From the NCBI RefSeq assembly GCF_003334405.1, contig NZ_QOWM01000002.1: a DNA stretch of 64,000 nt; one strand, 5' to 3'. The stretch comes from Escherichia coli (GTDB taxonomy: Bacteria > Pseudomonadota > Gammaproteobacteria > Enterobacterales > Enterobacteriaceae). The notes beneath the pieces are model-generated. The model was not told where the DNA came from. It worked only from the letters and a program-made list of their open reading frames with translations, and ran no database searches. Of the stretch, positions 44,167 to 64,000 are shown piece after piece (position 1 is the first letter of the stretch; every line of letters begins with the position of its first letter). Position numbers and translations under genes: made by a program.

Positions 44167-45615
44167 TTATTCTCCATGCTCATTTTTCTTCAGCTTGCGC
44201 ATCAGAAGCCACATACGTACTGTCCTGACTTTTAAATCTTTATCAGAGACGGATTCCTTCACCAGGTCAGCATGATGCTGATAGCCATTAAAGAAGACGT
44301 TCAGCACAACGGCGCTAAGGGTTGCGAGCATAATGCCGCTATGTAGCAGCGGTTGCAGTACGGCCGGTAACTTAGAAAAGAAATCGTGAGAGAGCGTCGG
44401 AGTCATGCCAACGCCGAGACTGATCGCCACAATATAGAGGTTGTAACGGTTGGTGGTGTAGTTACAGCGCGACAGAATTCGAATCCCTGTCGCCAGTACC
44501 ATGCCGAACATCACTAGACCAGCGCCGCCCAGCACAAATTGCGGAATGGAGGCTACCAGCACCGCCATTTTTGGCACCATGCCAAACAGGATTAATATAA
44601 TTCCCGAAGAAATACACACCCAGCGGCTATGAACGCGCGTCACGCTAACCAGGCCAACGTTTTGAGAAAATGACGTGTGGGGGAAGCTGTTAAACGTGCC
44701 GCCTATCATTGTCCCTACGCCATCGACACGCAGCCCGCGAATAATATCGTGCGAAGAGAGTTTACGACCGACTATTTCACCCAGTGCCAGGAACATCCCC
44801 ATCGACTCGATAAACACGATGATTAACACGGCAGTCATGGTCAGAATGGAAACGGGATCGAAAATCGGCATACCAAACGACATCGGCGTAACAATCGCAA
44901 ACCATGAAGCATCATGTAGCCCGGATAAATTGACTTCATTCATCATCCACGAAAGTAAAAAGCCAAATACAATCCCCAGTAATACGGCGACGTTGGACAT
45001 AAATCCTTTCGCATAGCGAGTAATGAGCAAGATAAAAATTAAGACGGCAAAGGAGATACCTAAATAAACGGGATTACCATATTGCGGATTCCCTTTACCT
45101 CCGGCGGCCCAGTCAATACCCACCTGAATGATGCTAAGCCCGATAGAAGTAATAACCACACCGGTAACCAGTGGCGGGAATAAAGGCATCAAGCGACCGA
45201 TAAGTGGCGCTAATAATGTGGTGATAAAACCCGCGGCGATAGTGGCACCAAATATCCCCAGCAGGCCGATATCCGGGTTCATCCCAATGGCTATCATTGG
45301 TGTTACAGCAGCAAAGGTCACCGACATAATCACCGGCAGGCGGATCCCCATAAAGCGGCCGATACCGATACATTGCAATAATGTGACGATCCCGCAGCAA
45401 AAGAGATCCGAGCTAATGAGCATCGCAATAGCTTCTTTTGAGAGGCCCAGTCGGTCACCAATCATAAGAGGAACAGCGACTGCACCTGCGTACATGACAA
45501 GGACGTGTTGCAGACCGAGTATGATCAGCTTTCCTGGTGATAATATGCGGTCAACCTCATCAGTTGGGCGGTCTTGCCCAGAAGATGAGGGAAGTTGGGA
45601 ATCTATGGCGCTCAT
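44167..45615 (-). CDS. uacT: NCS2-family nucleobase permease (uric acid/xanthine type)
   Basis: 482 aa from MSAIDSQLPSSSGQDRP...; the track start at 45744 is an extension. Confidence 0.85.
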   Translation of the reverse strand: MSAIDSQLPSSSGQDRPTDEVDRILSPGKLIILGLQHVLVMYAGAVAVPLMIGDRLGLSKEAIAMLISSDLFCCGIVTLLQCIGIGRFMGIRLPVIMSVTFAAVTPMIAIGMNPDIGLLGIFGATIAAGFITTLLAPLIGRLMPLFPPLVTGVVITSIGLSIIQVGIDWAAGGKGNPQYGNPVYLGISFAVLIFILLITRYAKGFMSNVAVLLGIVFGFLLSWMMNEVNLSGLHDASWFAIVTPMSFGMPIFDPVSILTMTAVLIIVFIESMGMFLALGEIVGRKLSSHDIIRGLRVDGVGTMIGGTFNSFPHTSFSQNVGLVSVTRVHSRWVCISSGIILILFGMVPKMAVLVASIPQFVLGGAGLVMFGMVLATGIRILSRCNYTTNRYNLYIVAISLGVGMTPTLSHDFFSKLPAVLQPLLHSGIMLATLSAVVLNVFFNGYQHHADLVKESVSDKDLKVRTVRMWLLMRKLKKNEHGE

Positions 45616-46050
45616 CAGTGTTTCTCCTTTCGCCCGCCAGAGTAAAAAGCAACCGTTTACGTTAATGAAACTGTCTAAACACATGCTCGTGGAGTGCCAG
45701 TTTTTGCGAGGAAGGGGAGTTAGAGACAGGAATTGCGGAGGCAATCACATAATCGTGGTTAAACCACGAAAATGAGAAGAGAACCTGACAATGGAATTAT
45801 CTGTAATTTTCTCATATTGATATTTCATTAATCATTCTGGCATGTCGCACTCTCGCATTTAATCGTTTTTATCTGGATAGCGCTCTTTTGATCGGCAATG
45901 TTGAAATAATGAAAGCGGCATAGATTGAGGGGCAATAATTTGAACTCAGTCGCAAAATTATAATTAAAACGGTCATGCTACCTAATATATGCCCGTTTAT
46001 TGCATCGCGAAATTTGAGAAGACATAACTCATTAAATGAAAGGGATGCAA

Positions 46051-47970
46051 ATGAATAAGTTTATTGCTGCTGAAGCTGCGGAATGTATAGGCTGTCATGC
46101 TTGTGAAATTGCCTGTGCGGTGGCACACAATCAAGAAAACTGGCCGCTGAGTCACAGTGACTTTCGACCGCGTATCCACGTTGTAGGGAAAGGCCAGGCT
46201 GCGAATCCGGTGGCCTGCCATCACTGCAACAATGCCCCTTGCGTTACGGCTTGTCCGGTTAATGCTCTGACTTTCCAGTCCGATAGCGTACAACTGGACG
46301 AGCAAAAATGTATTGGTTGTAAAAGATGCGCAATCGCTTGCCCCTTTGGCGTCGTTGAGATGGTCGATACGATTGCGCAGAAATGCGACCTTTGTAACCA
46401 GCGCAGTTCCGGCACGCAAGCCTGTATTGAAGTTTGCCCAACACAGGCGTTACGACTGATGGACGATAAAGGGTTGCAGCAGATAAAGGTGGCCCGCCAG
46501 CGCAAAACGGCAGCAGGAAAAGCGTCATCAGACGCTCAGCCATCTCGCAGTGCAGCGTTGCTCCCCGTTAACTCGCGTAAAGGCGCAGATAAAATTTCAG
46601 CGAGTGAACGGAAAACCCACTTTGGCGAAATATATTGCGGGCTGGATCCACAACAAGCGACTTATGAGAGTGACCGCTGTGTTTATTGTGCCGAAAAAGC
46701 TAACTGCAACTGGCATTGCCCGCTGCATAACGCTATTCCGGATTACATCCGTCTGGTACAGGAAGGAAAGATTATTGAAGCGGCAGAACTTTGCCACCAG
46801 ACCAGTTCCTTACCAGAAATTTGCGGCAGGGTATGTCCACAGGACCGTCTTTGTGAAGGCGCATGTACTTTGAAAGATCACTCGGGCGCAGTCTCTATCG
46901 GTAATCTGGAACGCTACATCACCGATACCGCGCTGGCGATGGGCTGGCGTCCCGATGTCAGCAAAGTTGTTCCCCGTAGCGAAAAAGTGGCGGTGATTGG
47001 CGCTGGGCCTGCAGGGTTAGGGTGTGCTGATATTCTGGCGCGCGCAGGAGTTCAGGTCGATGTCTTTGATCGCCATCCAGAAATTGGCGGTATGCTGACT
47101 TTTGGCATTCCTCCTTTCAAACTCGATAAAACGGTATTAAGCCAGCGGCGAGAGATATTCACCGCAATGGGAATCGACTTTCATCTTAACTGTGAAATTG
47201 GCCGCGATATTACCTTTAGCGATTTAACTTCTGAATATGATGCAGTTTTCATCGGCGTGGGGACTTACGGGATGATGCGAGCAGATCTGCCGCATGAAGA
47301 TGCGCCCGGTGTCATTCAGGCTCTACCGTTCCTGACTGCCCATACCCGCCAGCTCATGGGATTGCCGGAGTCTGAAGAGTATCCGCTGACGGACGTGGAA
47401 GGTAAGCGAGTCGTGGTATTGGGCGGTGGCGATACGACAATGGATTGTTTGCGGACTTCCATCCGCCTCAATGCCGCCAGCGTGACCTGCGCGTATCGTC
47501 GTGATGAAGTCAGTATGCCGGGCTCGCGCAAAGAGGTGGTTAATGCGCGCGAGGAAGGTGTCGAGTTTCAGTTCAATGTTCAACCGCAATATATCGCTTG
47601 TGACGAAGATGGGCGTTTAACTGCGGTGGGCCTGATTCGTACCGCCATGGGTGAGCCGGGGCCGGATGGTCGCCGTCGTCCTCGTCCGGTAGCGGGTTCA
47701 GAGTTTGAATTGCCCGCCGATGTTCTGATTATGGCCTTTGGTTTCCAGGCGCATGCCATGCCGTGGTTGCAGGGCAGCGGAATTAAACTCGATAAATGGG
47801 GCCTGATTCAAACCGGTGACGTCGGGTATTTACCTACCCAGACGCATCTGAAAAAAGTCTTTGCTGGTGGTGATGCAGTTCATGGCGCGGATCTGGTTGT
47901 CACTGCAATGGCCGCAGGAAGGCAGGCGGCGCGCGATATGTTAACTCTGTTTGATACGAAGGCATCGTGA
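46051..47970 (+). CDS. ygfT: Fe-S-containing oxidoreductase with GltD-like (glutamate synthase small subunit) domain
   Basis: About 639 aa from [24 protein letters not shown]; multiple CxxCxxCxxxCP ferredoxin motifs plus FAD/NAD(P) folds ([14 protein letters not shown]). Confidence 0.85.
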
Positions 47971-62742: not shown

Positions 62743-63999
62743 ATGAATATTTTCACAGAGGCTGCAAAACTCGAAGAGCAAAATTGTCCGTTTGCTATGG
62801 CGCAAATTGTTGATAGCCGAGGCTCGACTCCCCGCCATTCTGCACAAATGTTAGTGCGCGCCGATGGTTCTATCGTCGGTACAATTGGTGGCGGAATGGT
62901 TGAGCGGAAGGTGATTGAAGAGTCGCTTCAGGCATTGCAGGAACGTAAGCCGCGATTATTCCATGGACGTATGGCTCGTAACGGTGCGGATGCTGTCGGG
63001 TCAGATTGTGGAGGTGCAATGTCAGTATTTATCAGCGTCCATGGTATGCGTCCACGTCTGGTGTTGATTGGCGCGGGGCATGTCAACCGGGCGATAGCCC
63101 AGAGTGCGGCGCTATTAGGATTTGATATTGCCGTTGCTGATATTTATCGCGAAAGCCTCAATCCTGAACTATTCCCACCATCAACCACGCTTCTCCATGC
63201 TGAGTCGTTTGGTGCGGCAGTGGAAGCACTGGATATTCGCCCTGATAATTTTGTCCTGATTGCCACGAATAATCAGGATCGTGAAGCCCTCGACAAACTC
63301 ATTGAACAGCCCATTGCATGGTTGGGGTTGCTGGCAAGTCGTCGCAAGGTTCAGCTTTTCCTGCGTCAATTGCGTGAGAAAGGCGTGGCTGAAGAACATA
63401 TTGCCCGTTTACATGCGCCCGTTGGTTACAACATAGGTGCGGAAACGCCGCAGGAGATCGCCATCAGCGTGCTGGCAGAAATATTACAGGTGAAAAATAA
63501 CGCGCCGGGTGGGCTGATGATGAAACCTTCTCATCCTTCCGGACACCAGCTGGTGGTGATTCGCGGTGCGGGAGATATCGCCAGTGGTGTGGCGCTACGT
63601 CTGTATCATGCGGGTTTTAAAGTGATCATGCTGGAAGTGGAAAAACCGACAGTGATTCGTTGTACCGTGGCGTTTGCCCAGGCCGTGTTCGATGGCGAAA
63701 TGACGGTCGAAGGCGTCACTGCTCGCCTGGCAACCAGCTCTGCGGAAGCGATGAAACTTACCGAACGCGGATTCATTCCTGTGATGGTAGATCCCGCCTG
63801 TTCATTGCTTGATGAACTGAAACCGCTTTGCGTGGTGGACGCTATTCTGGCGAAACAGAATTTGGGAACGCGGGCAGATATGGCACCAGTAACAATCGCG
63901 CTTGGGCCGGGCTTTACTGCTGGGAAGGATTGTCATGCGGTAATTGAAACAAATCGCGGGCACTGGCTCGGTCAGGTGATTTACTCTGGTTGTGCGCAG
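62743..63999 (+). CDS. yqeB: XdhC/CoxI-family accessory protein (3'-truncated by window end)
   Basis: Open frame from the ATG at 62743 to the window end (MNIFTEAAKLEEQNCPFAMAQIVDSRGSTPRHSAQMLVRADGSIVGTIGGG...); absent from the ORF track because no stop codon falls inside the window. Confidence 0.85.
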   Translation, partial: MNIFTEAAKLEEQNCPFAMAQIVDSRGSTPRHSAQMLVRADGSIVGTIGGGMVERKVIEESLQALQERKPRLFHGRMARNGADAVGSDCGGAMSVFISVHGMRPRLVLIGAGHVNRAIAQSAALLGFDIAVADIYRESLNPELFPPSTTLLHAESFGAAVEALDIRPDNFVLIATNNQDREALDKLIEQPIAWLGLLASRRKVQLFLRQLREKGVAEEHIARLHAPVGYNIGAETPQEIAISVLAEILQVKNNAPGGLMMKPSHPSGHQLVVIRGAGDIASGVALRLYHAGFKVIMLEVEKPTVIRCTVAFAQAVFDGEMTVEGVTARLATSSAEAMKLTERGFIPVMVDPACSLLDELKPLCVVDAILAKQNLGTRADMAPVTIALGPGFTAGKDCHAVIETNRGHWLGQVIYSGCAQ

Positions 64000-64000
64000 G

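Follow-up and report, generated by a model that had tools for sequence, protein, structure and literature searches.

A reductive, anaerobic route of uric acid degradation in Escherichia coli, the 2,8-dioxopurine pathway, has been established by two studies from 2025. XdhD, together with the FAD protein YgfM, strips urate of its oxygen at C6, yielding 2,8-dioxopurine; the ring is reduced by YgfK at the expense of NAD(P)H, after which SsnA opens the reduced ring hydrolytically to ureidomethyl-hydantoin, which the products of hyuA, ygeW, yqeA and ygeY, together with that of ygeX, carry onward to pyruvate, ammonia and ATP. With E. coli proteins, 2,8-dioxopurine was obtained from XdhD(-YgfM) and NADH, and ureidomethyl-hydantoin from YgfK with SsnA and NAD(P)H; a delta-xdhD strain accumulated urate and lacked 2,8-dioxopurine (Li et al. 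2025, Life Metab, PMC12507026). In that work the XdhD activity data come only from an end-point LC-MS assay run at 10 uM enzyme, and XdhD's partner of 30 kDa is termed 'putatively YgfM'. E. coli YgfK has been characterised as an NADPH:2,8-dioxopurine oxidoreductase for which selenate is neither required nor stimulatory, and the same intermediates pile up in E. coli and Clostridium sporogenes mutants (Liu et al. 2025, bioRxiv 10.1101/2025.04.24.650524). An independent commentary agrees with the pathway of the two studies. Others have shown that UacT imports urate and that XanQ, GhxQ and GuaD route xanthine, hypoxanthine and guanine to urate via XdhABC.

The window, i.e. the whole stretch of 64,000 nucleotides analysed, contains the E. 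coli ygf/yqe locus at 44167-64000, as identified by Megablast, RefSeq annotation and family models. All 19,834 of 19,834 bases are 100% identical to E. coli ML35 and to nine further complete genomes among the matches listed; among 5426 complete E. coli genomes, 5375 carry a match, with query coverage of at least 80% in 5156. Gene coordinates are those of the RefSeq annotation of the matching stretch converted to window numbering, with which the table of open reading frames is consistent; position 44167 marks where uacT ends with its stop codon. The thirteen genes named in the earlier note were all found, in the order given there, and UacT, YgfT, GuaD, XanQ, XdhD, YgfM, SsnA, YgfK, MocA, YqeC and YqeB score above curated NCBIfam cut-offs. 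Past the window end the cluster runs on for about 13 kb, through yqeA/arcC, hyuA, ygeY, dpaL/ygeX, ygeW, ygeV and xdhABC. We consider it highly probable (roughly 85%) that the locus forms one half of the reductive urate pathway of E. coli, namely uptake, the entry reactions, cofactor maturation and, probably, electron supply. The role of the cluster in urate metabolism is thus already known, having been established by the 2025 studies. The uptake genes are:

44167-45615, minus strand: uacT, urate/proton symporter of the NCS2 family (RefSeq; TIGR03173, 509.8 bits, cut-off 414; YgeV iModulon member)
48494-49861, minus strand: ghxQ, guanine/hypoxanthine permease belonging to the AzgA-like NCS2 branch (RefSeq; PF00860, E 1.8e-80)
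49897-51213, minus strand: guaD, guanine deaminase (NF006679, 738.5 bits, cut-off 351)
51231-52631, minus strand: xanQ, xanthine/proton symporter (TIGR00801, 455.4 bits, cut-off 291.8)

Urate, xanthine and guanine/hypoxanthine permeases and guaD lie beside the redox genes, as had been proposed. The description of three NCS2 permeases holds at superfamily level, because GhxQ matches PF00860 and no NCBIfam model. The genes for urate chemistry follow:

52796-55666, minus strand: xdhD, molybdenum (MCD) subunit, urate 6-dehydroxylase/2,8-dioxopurine dehydrogenase (TIGR03313, 2122.8 bits, cut-off 1101.9)
55663-56442, minus strand: ygfM, FAD-binding subunit (TIGR03312, 489.7 bits; PF00941 and PF03450)
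56493-57821, minus strand: ssnA, amidohydrolase opening the reduced 2,8-dioxopurine ring (TIGR03314, 737.9 bits; published biochemistry)
57824-60922, minus strand: ygfK, NAD(P)H:2,8-dioxopurine oxidoreductase, Fe-S flavoprotein of 1032 aa (TIGR03315, 1775.3 bits; published biochemistry)

XdhD retains the catalytic Glu917 and Glu606, with PFGAKSISE aligning to the catalytic Glu motif of the family. The classic reductive dehydroxylase of this enzyme family, 4-hydroxybenzoyl-CoA reductase, is also the closest solved relative of XdhD (1rm6_A, E 3.7e-80), a likeness that counts in favour of the reductive direction. YgfK, whose length the earlier note gave correctly, contains Pfam domains Fer4_20 (453-532), Pyr_redox_2 (552-839) and Fer4 (near 900-950), with no Pfam domain matched in residues 1-450; its annotation still reads 'putative selenate reductase subunit'. 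The earlier note's anaerobic purine or urate catabolic module, centred on an enzyme of the molybdenum hydroxylase family, is thus borne out, but not its chemistry. The note had proposed hydroxylation, with no firmly established substrate and largely undefined reactions; the reactions have been reconstituted in two studies with these E. coli proteins, and the pathway is reductive, XdhD working in reverse as a urate 6-dehydroxylase ahead of reduction by YgfK and hydrolysis by SsnA. Nor is purine salvage, as the note had it, the role of the pathway.

How electrons reach the molybdenum in XdhD merits separate consideration, given the following feature:

55157-55666, minus strand: xdhD codons 1-170, cysteine-free relic of a 2x[2Fe-2S] module (alignment to 3hrd_D, E 1.3e-17)

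The eight ligand positions, by alignment to 3hrd_D, are occupied by D38, A44, D47, S59, S98, N101, S133 and D135; they read DADSSNSD or DADSSNHD in XdhD orthologues of five species, and every one of 90 XdhD-type family representatives has at most one cysteine among them. By contrast, the hydroxylases adjoining yqeB in other phyla retain the ligand cysteines. The alignments thus indicate that XdhD has lost both [2Fe-2S] clusters, so electron delivery to molybdenum could not use the textbook FAD-FeS-FeS-Mo wire, in conflict with the modelled NADH-FAD-Mo route. No mention of the missing ligands was found in the searchable literature, and their loss is an addition of the present analysis to the 2025 chemistry.

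Electrons may be supplied by the products of two neighbouring genes, which overlap at GTGATGA:

46051-47970, plus strand: ygfT (uacF), fusion of a HydN-like domain, which has four 4Fe-4S motifs, and a GltD-like FAD/NAD(P)H domain (NF009451, 1505.9 bits, cut-off 1154)
47970-48458, plus strand: ygfS, ferredoxin-like, carrying four CxxCxxCxxxC motifs (HydN/AegA-like matches)

YgfT has 31 Cys and six cluster motifs, and YgfS 16 Cys in four motifs; the latter has been placed in the HydN/YsaA/HycB paralogue group, and its NCBIfam match is to a HydN-like 4Fe-4S protein only, under equivalog cut-offs. Work by Iwadate & Kato (2019) is reported to tie ygfT to formate-dependent urate utilisation, a link carried also by NCBIfam names and backed by HydN-family membership and AegA interactions. 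Thus YgfT and YgfS, as HydN-family multi-cluster ferredoxin-like proteins, may pass formate electrons, entering via formate dehydrogenase H (FDH-H), into the two reductive steps. This route is reached indirectly, since FDH-H activity was unaffected by AegA and the authors concluded that the two do not interact.

With regard to transcription, three published sigma-54 sites (OS31, OS32 and IS34; Bonocora et al. 2015) are present letter for letter, and two hairpins were found by consensus scan:

45988-46004, plus strand: TATGCCCGTTTATTGCA, bound by sigma-54, upstream of ygfT (identical in sequence to ChIP-seq site OS32, reported with a weak motif score)
60995-61011, minus strand: GTGGTGCGATTGTTGCT, sigma-54 promoter from which ygfK-ssnA-ygfM-xdhD is transcribed (identical in sequence to ChIP-seq site OS31)
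62326-62342, plus strand: intragenic sigma-54 promoter within yqeC driving yqeB, TGAGCACGAACCTTGCA (exact match to site IS34 of that study)
48465-48488, minus strand: terminator-like hairpin (9 pairs, 7 GC) and T-run downstream of ghxQ, adjoining the ygfS stop
52771-52786, found on both strands: GGCCGCCGAAGCGGCC, perfect GC hairpin flanked by the xdhD stop and the xanQ start

ygfK-ssnA-ygfM-xdhD is one sigma-54 operon, with gene junctions of 4 nt and 2 nt; the ygfM stop overlaps the xdhD start in ATGA, and the hairpin at 52771-52786 likely marks its end. The -24/-12 element upstream of ygfK is kept at the same place in six further species. From ChIP/expression studies or the present analysis, and with YgeV iModulon membership in support, the operon is in one regulon with xdhABC, ygeWXY-hyuA, ygfT and uacT. 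Co-regulation is only partial, because xanQ-guaD-ghxQ, mocA, yqeC and yqeB lie outside the YgeV iModulon and the promoter of yqeB is responsive to nitrogen limitation; mutation of IS34 rendered the YqeB protein undetectable (Bonocora et al. 2015). A dyad recurs upstream of these promoters:

45810-45822, no strand: candidate enhancer (UAS), dyad TCTCATATTGATA, between the divergent uacT and ygfT and 178 bp upstream of the -24/-12 element of ygfT (motif common to four sigma-54 promoter regions)
61180-61192, no strand: perfect dyad TATCATTATGATA, candidate YgeV enhancer site, 182 bp upstream of the -24 element of ygfK

An identical 14-mer to the ygfT-side dyad occurs upstream of ygeW. In seven genera the consensus, TATCA-N3-TGATA, sits some 180 bp upstream of the sigma-54 promoters of the locus. 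In Kluyvera, Edwardsiella, two Aeromonas species, Photobacterium, Serratia and Morganella it precedes ygfK by 239-319 bp; its spacing to the -24 element is 174-196 bp in seven species including E. coli. Nine matches occur in 78 kb (2.1 expected), five of them within the four sigma-54 promoter regions. The conserved dyad is thus a candidate common enhancer, possibly the YgeV site, and is newly put forward here.

The proposed markers of the selenium trait, mocA, yqeC and yqeB, do flank the urate module:

61244-61822, minus strand: mocA, molybdenum cofactor cytidylyltransferase, for the MCD form of the cofactor (TIGR03310, 214.2 bits, cut-off 186.45)
61925-62695, plus strand: yqeC, selenium-cofactor accessory protein, predicted SIMIBI-class P-loop NTPase
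62743-64000, plus strand: yqeB, first 419 of 541 codons, truncated at residue 419 by the window end

In YqeB an XdhC-type Moco chaperone (aa 12-247) is joined to a YqeB-specific unit (aa ~270-541), which a high-confidence model predicts to combine a Rossmann domain, putatively nucleotide-binding, with a barrel-sandwich domain. YqeC, likewise modelled with high confidence as a SIMIBI P-loop NTPase, has a Walker A motif (G27-S33), E121-A-D-G124 and an invariant H136-E-P-C139; hhalign gives 32% probability against E. coli ArgK, and YqeC is related to the G3E chaperones only in fold. Both fold assignments are additions of this work. YqeB is encoded in at least 579 species genomes. Co-conservation, as the earlier note had proposed, is borne out: of 33 non-Collinsella genomes, 24 have yqeC within 10 kb of yqeB, 14 have a gene for a Mo-hydroxylase large subunit there, and 5 have selD; an XdhC-type domain accompanies yqeB at 25 of the 33 loci (fused in 14, nearby in 11), and a MocA-YqeB fusion was found (P0117).

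MocA may convert the cofactor to its cytidine dinucleotide form, which YqeB would hold while selenium, from the selenophosphate of SelD, replaces the terminal sulfur or oxygen ligand, an exchange that YqeC might drive or gate. TIGR03309 is confined to selD-positive genomes (Haft & Self 2008). The C. sporogenes 2,8-dioxopurine dehydrogenase (DOPDH) purified from a selD mutant was inactive, and C. difficile genetics, in which selD and yqeB were needed, implies selenium dependence; deletion of yqeC there gave no phenotype. Selenium is never mentioned in the E. coli study. SelD dependence is proven only for the clostridial enzyme, DOPDH, which belongs to a different subfamily from E. coli XdhD; the latter scores 300 bits against the selenium-dependent XDH model TIGR03311, below the cut-off of 830. 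In its proposed driving or gating role YqeC would resemble UreG, HypB and MeaB, which serve other cofactors.

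The locus at positions 44167-64000 belongs to the core E. coli chromosome. Its whole length aligns at 100% identity with ten listed complete genomes, ML35 and nine others, and 5375 of the 5426 complete genomes of E. coli give a match. All the genes listed in the earlier note are confirmed as written by the RefSeq annotation of the identical stretch, the ORF table and NCBIfam models, 11 of the 13 locus proteins scoring above curated NCBIfam cut-offs; membership of the NCS2 family is supported by TIGR00801 for UacT and XanQ (454 and 455 bits) and by PF00860 for GhxQ (E 1.8e-80). 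The genes are arranged as follows:

uacT, minus strand
ygfT-ygfS, plus strand
ghxQ, guaD and xanQ, minus strand
xdhD, ygfM, ssnA and ygfK, minus strand, contiguous
mocA, minus strand
yqeC-yqeB, plus strand, yqeB being cut by the window end at codon 419 of 541

The genes for the downstream enzymes HyuA, YgeW, YgeY and YgeX, together with carbamate kinase, lie within 13 kb past the window end in the identical genome, and those for the activator YgeV and for XdhABC are also beyond position 64000. In ML35 the gene for the Fe-S subunit of XdhABC, xdhC (42848-43327 of the ML35 locus, outside the window), is annotated as a pseudogene with an internal stop; if it truly is one, conversion of xanthine to urate by XdhABC would be impaired in that strain. 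Just upstream of the locus are ordinary known features, i.e. prfB with its annotated programmed frameshift (about 40700-41798) and the tiny annotated ORFs yqfH (23 codons) and yqfG (41 codons) at 43972-44165. An Rfam scan of 43000-64000 at permissive E-values gave no RNA element in the intergenic regions; a match to RF02634, an Enterococcus sRNA family, at 43994-44096 on the minus strand (21.4 bits versus a gathering score of 100, E 0.42) is attributable to chance.

As a finding, the locus is already known. The earlier note had described its chemistry as largely undefined, a view overtaken by two independent studies from 2025 and a commentary. Li et al. 2025 Life Metab (PMC12507026) affinity-purified E. 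coli XdhD, with a co-purifying band of ~30 kDa taken as YgfM, and observed formation of 2,8-dioxopurine from urate and NADH in an end-point LC-MS assay at 10 μM enzyme; the same study has YgfK and SsnA, with NAD(P)H, turning 2,8-dioxopurine into ureidomethyl-hydantoin, accumulation of urate in a ΔxdhD strain and a block of xanthine oxidation in a ΔxdhA strain. Liu et al. 2025 (bioRxiv 10.1101/2025.04.24.650524) assigned E. coli YgfK as an NADPH:2,8-dioxopurine oxidoreductase, selective for 2,8-dioxopurine, with selenate neither required nor stimulatory. Overall the pathway takes up a net four electrons, after which hydrolyses lead to pyruvate, ammonia and ATP. The marker genes of the pathway cluster are all above cut-off in the window, i.e. 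TIGR03313 for XdhD (2122.8 bits), TIGR03315 for YgfK (1775.3 bits) and TIGR03314 for SsnA (737.9 bits). Thus, the anaerobic urate route on a molybdenum hydroxylase homologue that had been proposed for these genes stands, but hydroxylation is the wrong direction and salvage the wrong role, since 2,8-dioxopurine is formed from urate and the reconstitutions define a net reduction. The medical and ecological importance of the cluster is likewise published: gut bacteria that carry it are responsible for disposing of about one third of human urate, and overexpression of the cluster in engineered E. coli reduced serum urate in mice. No Pfam family matches residues 1-450 of YgfK (given as approximately 57824-59170 in the window); for this region, the model of Li et al. 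has an FMN site, by analogy with dihydropyrimidine dehydrogenase.

It is likely, at a probability that we put at roughly 65%, that E. coli XdhD is selenium dependent. The C. sporogenes enzyme catalysing the same step, DOPDH, is inactive when isolated from a selD mutant, and urate use by that organism requires Se and Mo; in C. difficile selD and yqeB are needed, while deletion of yqeC has no phenotype. The comparative-genomics argument for selenium made in the earlier note is essentially that of Haft & Self 2008, who had already pointed out the 23-gene E. coli region and the XdhC fusions. The SDMH marker genes are all encoded, yqeC (TIGR03172) and yqeB (TIGR03309) in the window and selD at 1846965-1848008 in K-12, and the XdhD catalytic Glu917, within the motif PFGAKSISE, aligns with the catalytic motif of solved relatives. 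XdhD scores below the cut-off of the model for Se-dependent xanthine dehydrogenases, TIGR03311 (300.1 versus 830.45 bits), and is 24-35% identical to the hydroxylases encoded beside yqeB in Firmicutes; as judged by sequence, DOPDH is not an orthologue of XdhD. Because the proven selenium enzyme is in another subfamily, and because the E. coli study of Li et al. does not mention selenium at all, the dependence is to be described as likely rather than demonstrated.

A less probable, indeed rather doubtful, alternative is that XdhD works with sulfur in the usual way (Mo=S), that YqeB is no more than an XdhC-type chaperone shared by XdhD and XdhABC, and that the link to selenium in E. coli is a correlation inherited from other lineages. 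The recovery of active XdhD from ordinary cultures, added selenium being unmentioned (PMC12507026), accords with this possibility, as does the assignment of XdhD to a subfamily other than that of the proven selenium enzyme. Moreover, YqeB includes a complete XdhC as its N-terminal half, the sole XdhC that E. coli has to serve XdhABC or XdhD. However, ordinary rich media contain trace selenium sufficient for FDH-H, and in the YqeB-specific domain the E. coli protein shares 53-62% identity with homologues from outside the enterobacteria, those of Moorella and spirochaetes among them. Beside XdhD orthologues in Gammaproteobacteria, the order yqeC-yqeB and the proximity of mocA are likewise kept. 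The YqeB-specific domain has been reported solely from selD-positive genomes (Haft & Self 2008), and YqeBC and SelD occur, according to published work, in all gut strains carrying the urate cluster; these observations again argue against the alternative. The selenium trait was defined in 2008, and E. coli is the most tractable host in which mocA-yqeC-yqeB lies next to an enzyme with a now-defined substrate.

In a scan limited to a single genome per species, a YqeB relative is encoded in at least 579 genomes, and neighbourhoods, with up to 10 kb of flank, were counted for 33 yqeB loci outside Collinsella. In 24 of these yqeC is present, mostly immediately upstream, and an XdhC-type domain is fused to YqeB in 14 and encoded nearby in 11. 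Near yqeB in the same 33 loci are a molybdenum hydroxylase large subunit (14), SsnA (11), MocA (9), YgfK (8) and selD (5 of 33), the last figure speaking against adjacency to selD as a general rule. In 47 Collinsella/Coriobacteriaceae loci (L012-L073), many of them short, yqeB/yqeC lie beside hyuA-ygeY-dpaL-ygeW, at 37-63% identity to E. coli; within the span covered, none of these loci has a molybdenum hydroxylase, ygfK or ssnA. In Kluyvera genomosp. 1 (L003, 647-7514) ygfT-ygfS adjoin ssnA-ygfK, and xdhD-ygfM and xanQ-guaD-ghxQ are not at this position, so the molybdenum enzyme must be encoded elsewhere or be missing in this organism.

YqeB matches PF02625 (XdhC_CoxI) at residues 12-74 (E 9.8e-20) and PF13478 (XdhC_C) at residues 106-247 (E 1.2e-32), and residues 12-247 thus constitute a complete XdhC-type chaperone. 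This was known in outline before, Leimkuehler's group having proposed YqeB as an XdhC-like chaperone for XdhD and XdhABC; Johnstone & Self 2024 report no predicted domains in YqeB and YqeC. XdhC and PaoD are without the extra unit of ~270 residues that characterises YqeB (TIGR03309) and that is a standalone protein in most lineages. As modelled from a 50-sequence alignment (pLDDT 93.1), this YqeB-specific half is predicted to comprise a Rossmann-type nucleotide-binding domain, with an invariant G-x-G-D, and a barrel-sandwich domain. The latter superposes on biotinyl domains at 1.0 Å, but the carrier lysine is absent, so a biotin/lipoyl carrier function, as might be suggested by the AccB similarity noted by Johnstone & Self, was rejected. 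Foldseek comparison of the whole YqeB-specific unit with solved structures gave TM values no higher than 0.28, with XdhC structures absent from the matches; the idea that the Rossmann part is a duplicated XdhC_C domain is thus unsupported. No cysteine is invariant in the YqeB-specific half, though many Arg, Lys and Asp residues are, a pattern that would speak against YqeB as a persulfide/perselenide relay and in favour of a phosphorylated ligand being bound.

The YqeC model (pLDDT 91.6) has invariant Walker A, E-x-D-G and H-E-P-C motifs, and the protein shows the Walker A form GxxGxGK[ST], the Walker B motif and the fold of the SIMIBI class. Profile searches of YqeC and of the YqeB domain against all PDB sequences returned only P-loop and Rossmann motifs, the best match for YqeC (E 0.003) covering the P-loop only, and hhalign comparison of YqeC with E. 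coli ArgK, encoded in the same window, gave a weak 32% probability. On the model, YqeC is assigned at the level of the SIMIBI class, G3E family membership not being claimed; at the level of sequence it does not belong with the NTPases of this class that insert metals or cofactors (UreG, HypB, MeaB/ArgK, CooC), nor with SRP/FtsY or MinD. A YqeB homologue of 462 residues, P0117, combines a YqeB domain with a MocA-type nucleotidyltransferase domain (PF12804). From its domain composition this appears to be a second 'Rosetta stone' fusion, tying YqeB to the dinucleotide form of the molybdenum cofactor. Taken together, the MocA-YqeB fusion, the XdhC fusions and the conserved mocA/yqeC/yqeB neighbourhood lead to a working model in which YqeB would hold the cytidine-dinucleotide cofactor during selenium installation and YqeC would be a nucleotide-driven helper of that installation on YqeB.

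The N-terminal region of XdhD is unusual. Its first 170 residues (codons at 55157-55666, minus strand) show clear homology to the family's 2x[2Fe-2S] subunits (3hrd_D, E 1.3e-17), yet the eight positions of the [2Fe-2S] ligands are all substituted (D38, A44, D47, S59, S98, N101, S133 and D135), the first cysteine of the protein being residue 190. XdhD thus lacks the canonical [2Fe-2S] ligation of the xanthine oxidase family, whereas its partner YgfM has the features of a normal FAD subunit (PF00941, E 9.5e-20; PF03450, E 5e-4). Orthologues from Edwardsiella, Morganella, Serratia and two Aeromonas have DADSSNSD or DADSSNHD at the ligand positions. Across 90 XdhD-type cluster representatives, down to 47% identity, each has at most one Cys at these positions, and D38, D47, S98 and N101 are almost invariant; this homologue set consists mostly of short fragments, sufficient for comparing the ligand positions though not for a phylogeny. 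In Photobacterium and four Firmicutes loci, the hydroxylases encoded next to yqeB still have their Fe-S cysteines, with 8 of 8 in three loci, 7 of 8 in Photobacterium and all seven covered by the alignment in a Syntrophomonadaceae locus. It may be, at odds that we consider even, that the XdhD type is the first active xanthine oxidase-family enzyme known without an intramolecular [2Fe-2S] relay, with a cysteine-free relic throughout the subfamily. A literature search found no mention of the missing XdhD cysteines, and mention in another paper or database entry is possible.

In characterised family members the two clusters span roughly 25-30 Å, from flavin to molybdenum. If XdhD-YgfM is arranged like the rest of the family, FAD and Mo would be too distant for direct transfer and urate reduction would need a non-canonical route. 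The NADH-FAD-Mo scheme of Li et al. was modelled by analogy with R. capsulatus XDH and, because the ligands of both clusters are missing in XdhD, has no wire; if the relay is truly absent, the scheme is incomplete and the physiological electron donor becomes a real mechanistic problem. Candidate solutions are that electrons might come from the formate-linked poly-ferredoxins YgfS/YgfT or from YgfK, that XdhD and YgfM could have a different quaternary arrangement, or that a ping-pong mechanism might operate, with a second reducing substrate at the Mo site. Elsewhere in the locus, YgfS has four Fe-S motifs, being a HydN-like four-cluster ferredoxin, YgfT has six and YgfK four. The genes for YgfT and its paralogue AegA have been tied to formate-dependent urate use, according to Iwadate & Kato 2019 as cited by others, and the two proteins fall in the HydN/HycB group of ferredoxins, which is linked to formate dehydrogenase H; AegA gave no interaction with FDH-H in published tests. 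Given these Fe-S motifs, the tie to formate and the HydN/HycB grouping, YgfS/YgfT are plausible as the real electron donors to XdhD. The lost clusters may explain why E. coli needs formate and YgfT/AegA.

With regard to expression, junctions of 4 and 2 nt join ygfK-ssnA-ygfM-xdhD, and ygfT is likewise joined to ygfS. Terminator-like sites are modestly enriched in the window (31 versus 23.0 expected), and only the two strongest gene-end hairpins were used. Sigma-70 promoter-like sites (22 versus 21.3 expected) and matches to a generic sigma-54 consensus (42 versus 43.9 expected) are at the chance level; since the sigma-54 motif alone carries no evidence, published ChIP sites were relied on. The elements are:

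52771-52786, perfect GC hairpin, between xdhD and xanQ
48465-48488, strong hairpin with T-run, downstream of ghxQ
60995-61011, sigma-54 site upstream of ygfK, exact sequence of a ChIP-seq site (Bonocora et al. 2015)
45988-46004, sigma-54 site upstream of ygfT, exact sequence of a ChIP-seq site (Bonocora et al. 2015)
62326-62342, sigma-54 site inside yqeC, exact sequence of a ChIP-seq site (Bonocora et al. 2015)
61180-61192 and 45810-45822, copies of the dyad TATCA-N3-TGATA in the window
40862, 40960 and 46701 of the ML35 locus (L001), further copies of the dyad

Bonocora et al. 2015 found that mutating the site inside yqeC abolished detectable YqeB protein and that the yqeB transcript rises under nitrogen limitation, with 'no obvious connection' to nitrogen. 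The urate pathway releases four ammonia per urate, which would explain that response.

The dyad lies upstream of all four sigma-54 promoters of the locus (ygfK, ygfT, ygeW and xdhA), with a score of 38 versus a shuffle maximum of 34. The 78 kb scanned contain nine matches, where 2.1 would be expected, and the four promoter regions, ~2% of the DNA, hold five of the nine. Ahead of ygfK the dyad recurs, at a distance of 239-319 bp, in Kluyvera, Edwardsiella, two Aeromonas, Photobacterium, Serratia and Morganella, and five genera have it ahead of ygeW as well. From the dyad to a recognisable -24/-12 element downstream there are 174-196 bp in E. coli and six of the other species. As the enhancer bound by YgeV it is a good candidate, putative as this assignment is, and our literature search found no described YgeV binding site. 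The YgeV iModulon excludes xanQ-guaD-ghxQ, mocA and yqeCB, and E. coli yqeB has no upstream dyad at up to one mismatch. In Edwardsiella and Serratia (in both cases inside yqeC) and in Aeromonas schubertii, a dyad is found 147-196 bp upstream of yqeB.

It is possible, though we think it unlikely, that the dyad is the site of another factor, e.g. a Fur-like, IHF-like or purine/nitrogen regulator, or an AT-rich coincidence. The copy at the ygfK promoter (TTATCATAATGATAA) is similar to part of a Fur box, TATCAA to half of the IHF consensus, and one perfect copy lies inside the dpaL coding sequence. Against this, both half-sites are kept as a symmetric dyad in seven genera, ~180 bp from the sigma-54 -24/-12 element, and such symmetry at a fixed distance fits a dimeric enhancer-binding protein. 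The dyad is, furthermore, at promoters of the YgeV iModulon, and ygeV is present in those dyad-bearing loci that reach ygeW. As a putative YgeV enhancer, it provides a handle on the strong medium dependence of urate degradation by E. coli, and so bears on probiotic design.

An oxidative role for XdhD-YgfM, as a hydroxylase (e.g. a hypoxanthine or xanthine oxidase) in purine/urate hydroxylation or salvage, now appears very improbable and is already contradicted by the 2025 reconstitutions. In its favour are the three purine permeases and guanine deaminase that adjoin, the membership of XdhD in the xanthine oxidase family with its catalytic Glu kept, and the ability of the clostridial enzyme also to catalyse the reverse, hydroxylating, reaction in vitro. 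The formation of 2,8-dioxopurine from urate by E. coli XdhD, the phenotypes of the two mutants and the net reduction over the pathway all oppose it. So does the closest solved relative of XdhD, 4-hydroxybenzoyl-CoA reductase (E 3.7e-80), a physiological reductive dehydroxylase of an aromatic ring, with which a reductive role for XdhD is consistent. Least probable of all, to the point of being hardly tenable, is that YgfK-YgfM-XdhD (YgfN) is a selenate reductase supplying selenide, as implied by current RefSeq/NCBIfam names ('putative selenate reductase subunit YgfK', models Se_sel_red_Mo and Se_sel_red_FAD) and by older genetics cited in Haft & Self 2008, given that YgfK acts selectively on 2,8-dioxopurine with no effect of selenate (Liu et al.), that homologues of the supposed subunits do not track selD (Haft & Self 2008) and that defined substrates account for all four proteins. 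The names 'putative selenate reductase subunit' for YgfK and 'Mo/Fe-S-binding subunit' for XdhD are misleading and are spreading to thousands of genomes; the selenate reductase names are also out of date.

Among known systems, the uricolytic ('yanthine') cluster of E. coli K-12, b2866-b2888, is the same locus, with genes, order and proteins as in the reconstitutions (Li et al. 2025; Liu et al. 2025; Liu et al. 2023; Kasahara et al. 2023); there is no difference in kind, the window carrying only the uacT-to-yqeB half. Reductive pyrimidine degradation (PydA, the dihydropyrimidinase PydB, and PydC) follows the same logic, in that the ring is reduced first and then opened by an amidohydrolase, and YgfK shares its Fer4_20 and pyridine-nucleotide oxidoreductase modules with dihydropyrimidine dehydrogenase (PydA). 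By contrast, the substrate of YgfK/SsnA is a purine isomer, and SsnA is of a distinct amidohydrolase family, TIGR03314.

The C. sporogenes DOPDH (XdhAC) catalyses the same reaction as XdhD, urate <-> 2,8-dioxopurine, in the same pathway, and is likewise a fused FeS-like and Mo polypeptide of the xanthine oxidase family. Unlike XdhD, DOPDH does not use NAD(P)H and has no reported FAD subunit, and its C. difficile counterpart lacks a YgfM subunit according to Li et al. The eight Fe-S cysteines, all missing from XdhD, are retained in clostridial-type enzymes encoded beside yqeB, and SelD dependence has been demonstrated for the clostridial enzyme only. The nicotinate dehydrogenase of Eubacterium barkeri (3hrd), a structurally characterised Mo=Se hydroxylase with a terminal selenido ligand on Mo, has Mo subunits that match XdhD at E 4e-44 and 7e-27, and its Fe-S subunit is the best match to the XdhD N-terminal domain; all eight cluster cysteines are present in it at the positions taken by D, A, D, S, S, N, S and D in XdhD, and it differs further in that its Mo subunits are split and it works as an oxidative hydroxylase. 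The 4-hydroxybenzoyl-CoA reductase of Thauera aromatica (1rm6/1sb3), which among solved proteins matches XdhD best, is also of the xanthine oxidase family, but has intact [2Fe-2S] clusters, an aryl-CoA substrate and no link to selenium; it has an extra [4Fe-4S] cluster, which is fed by ferredoxin.
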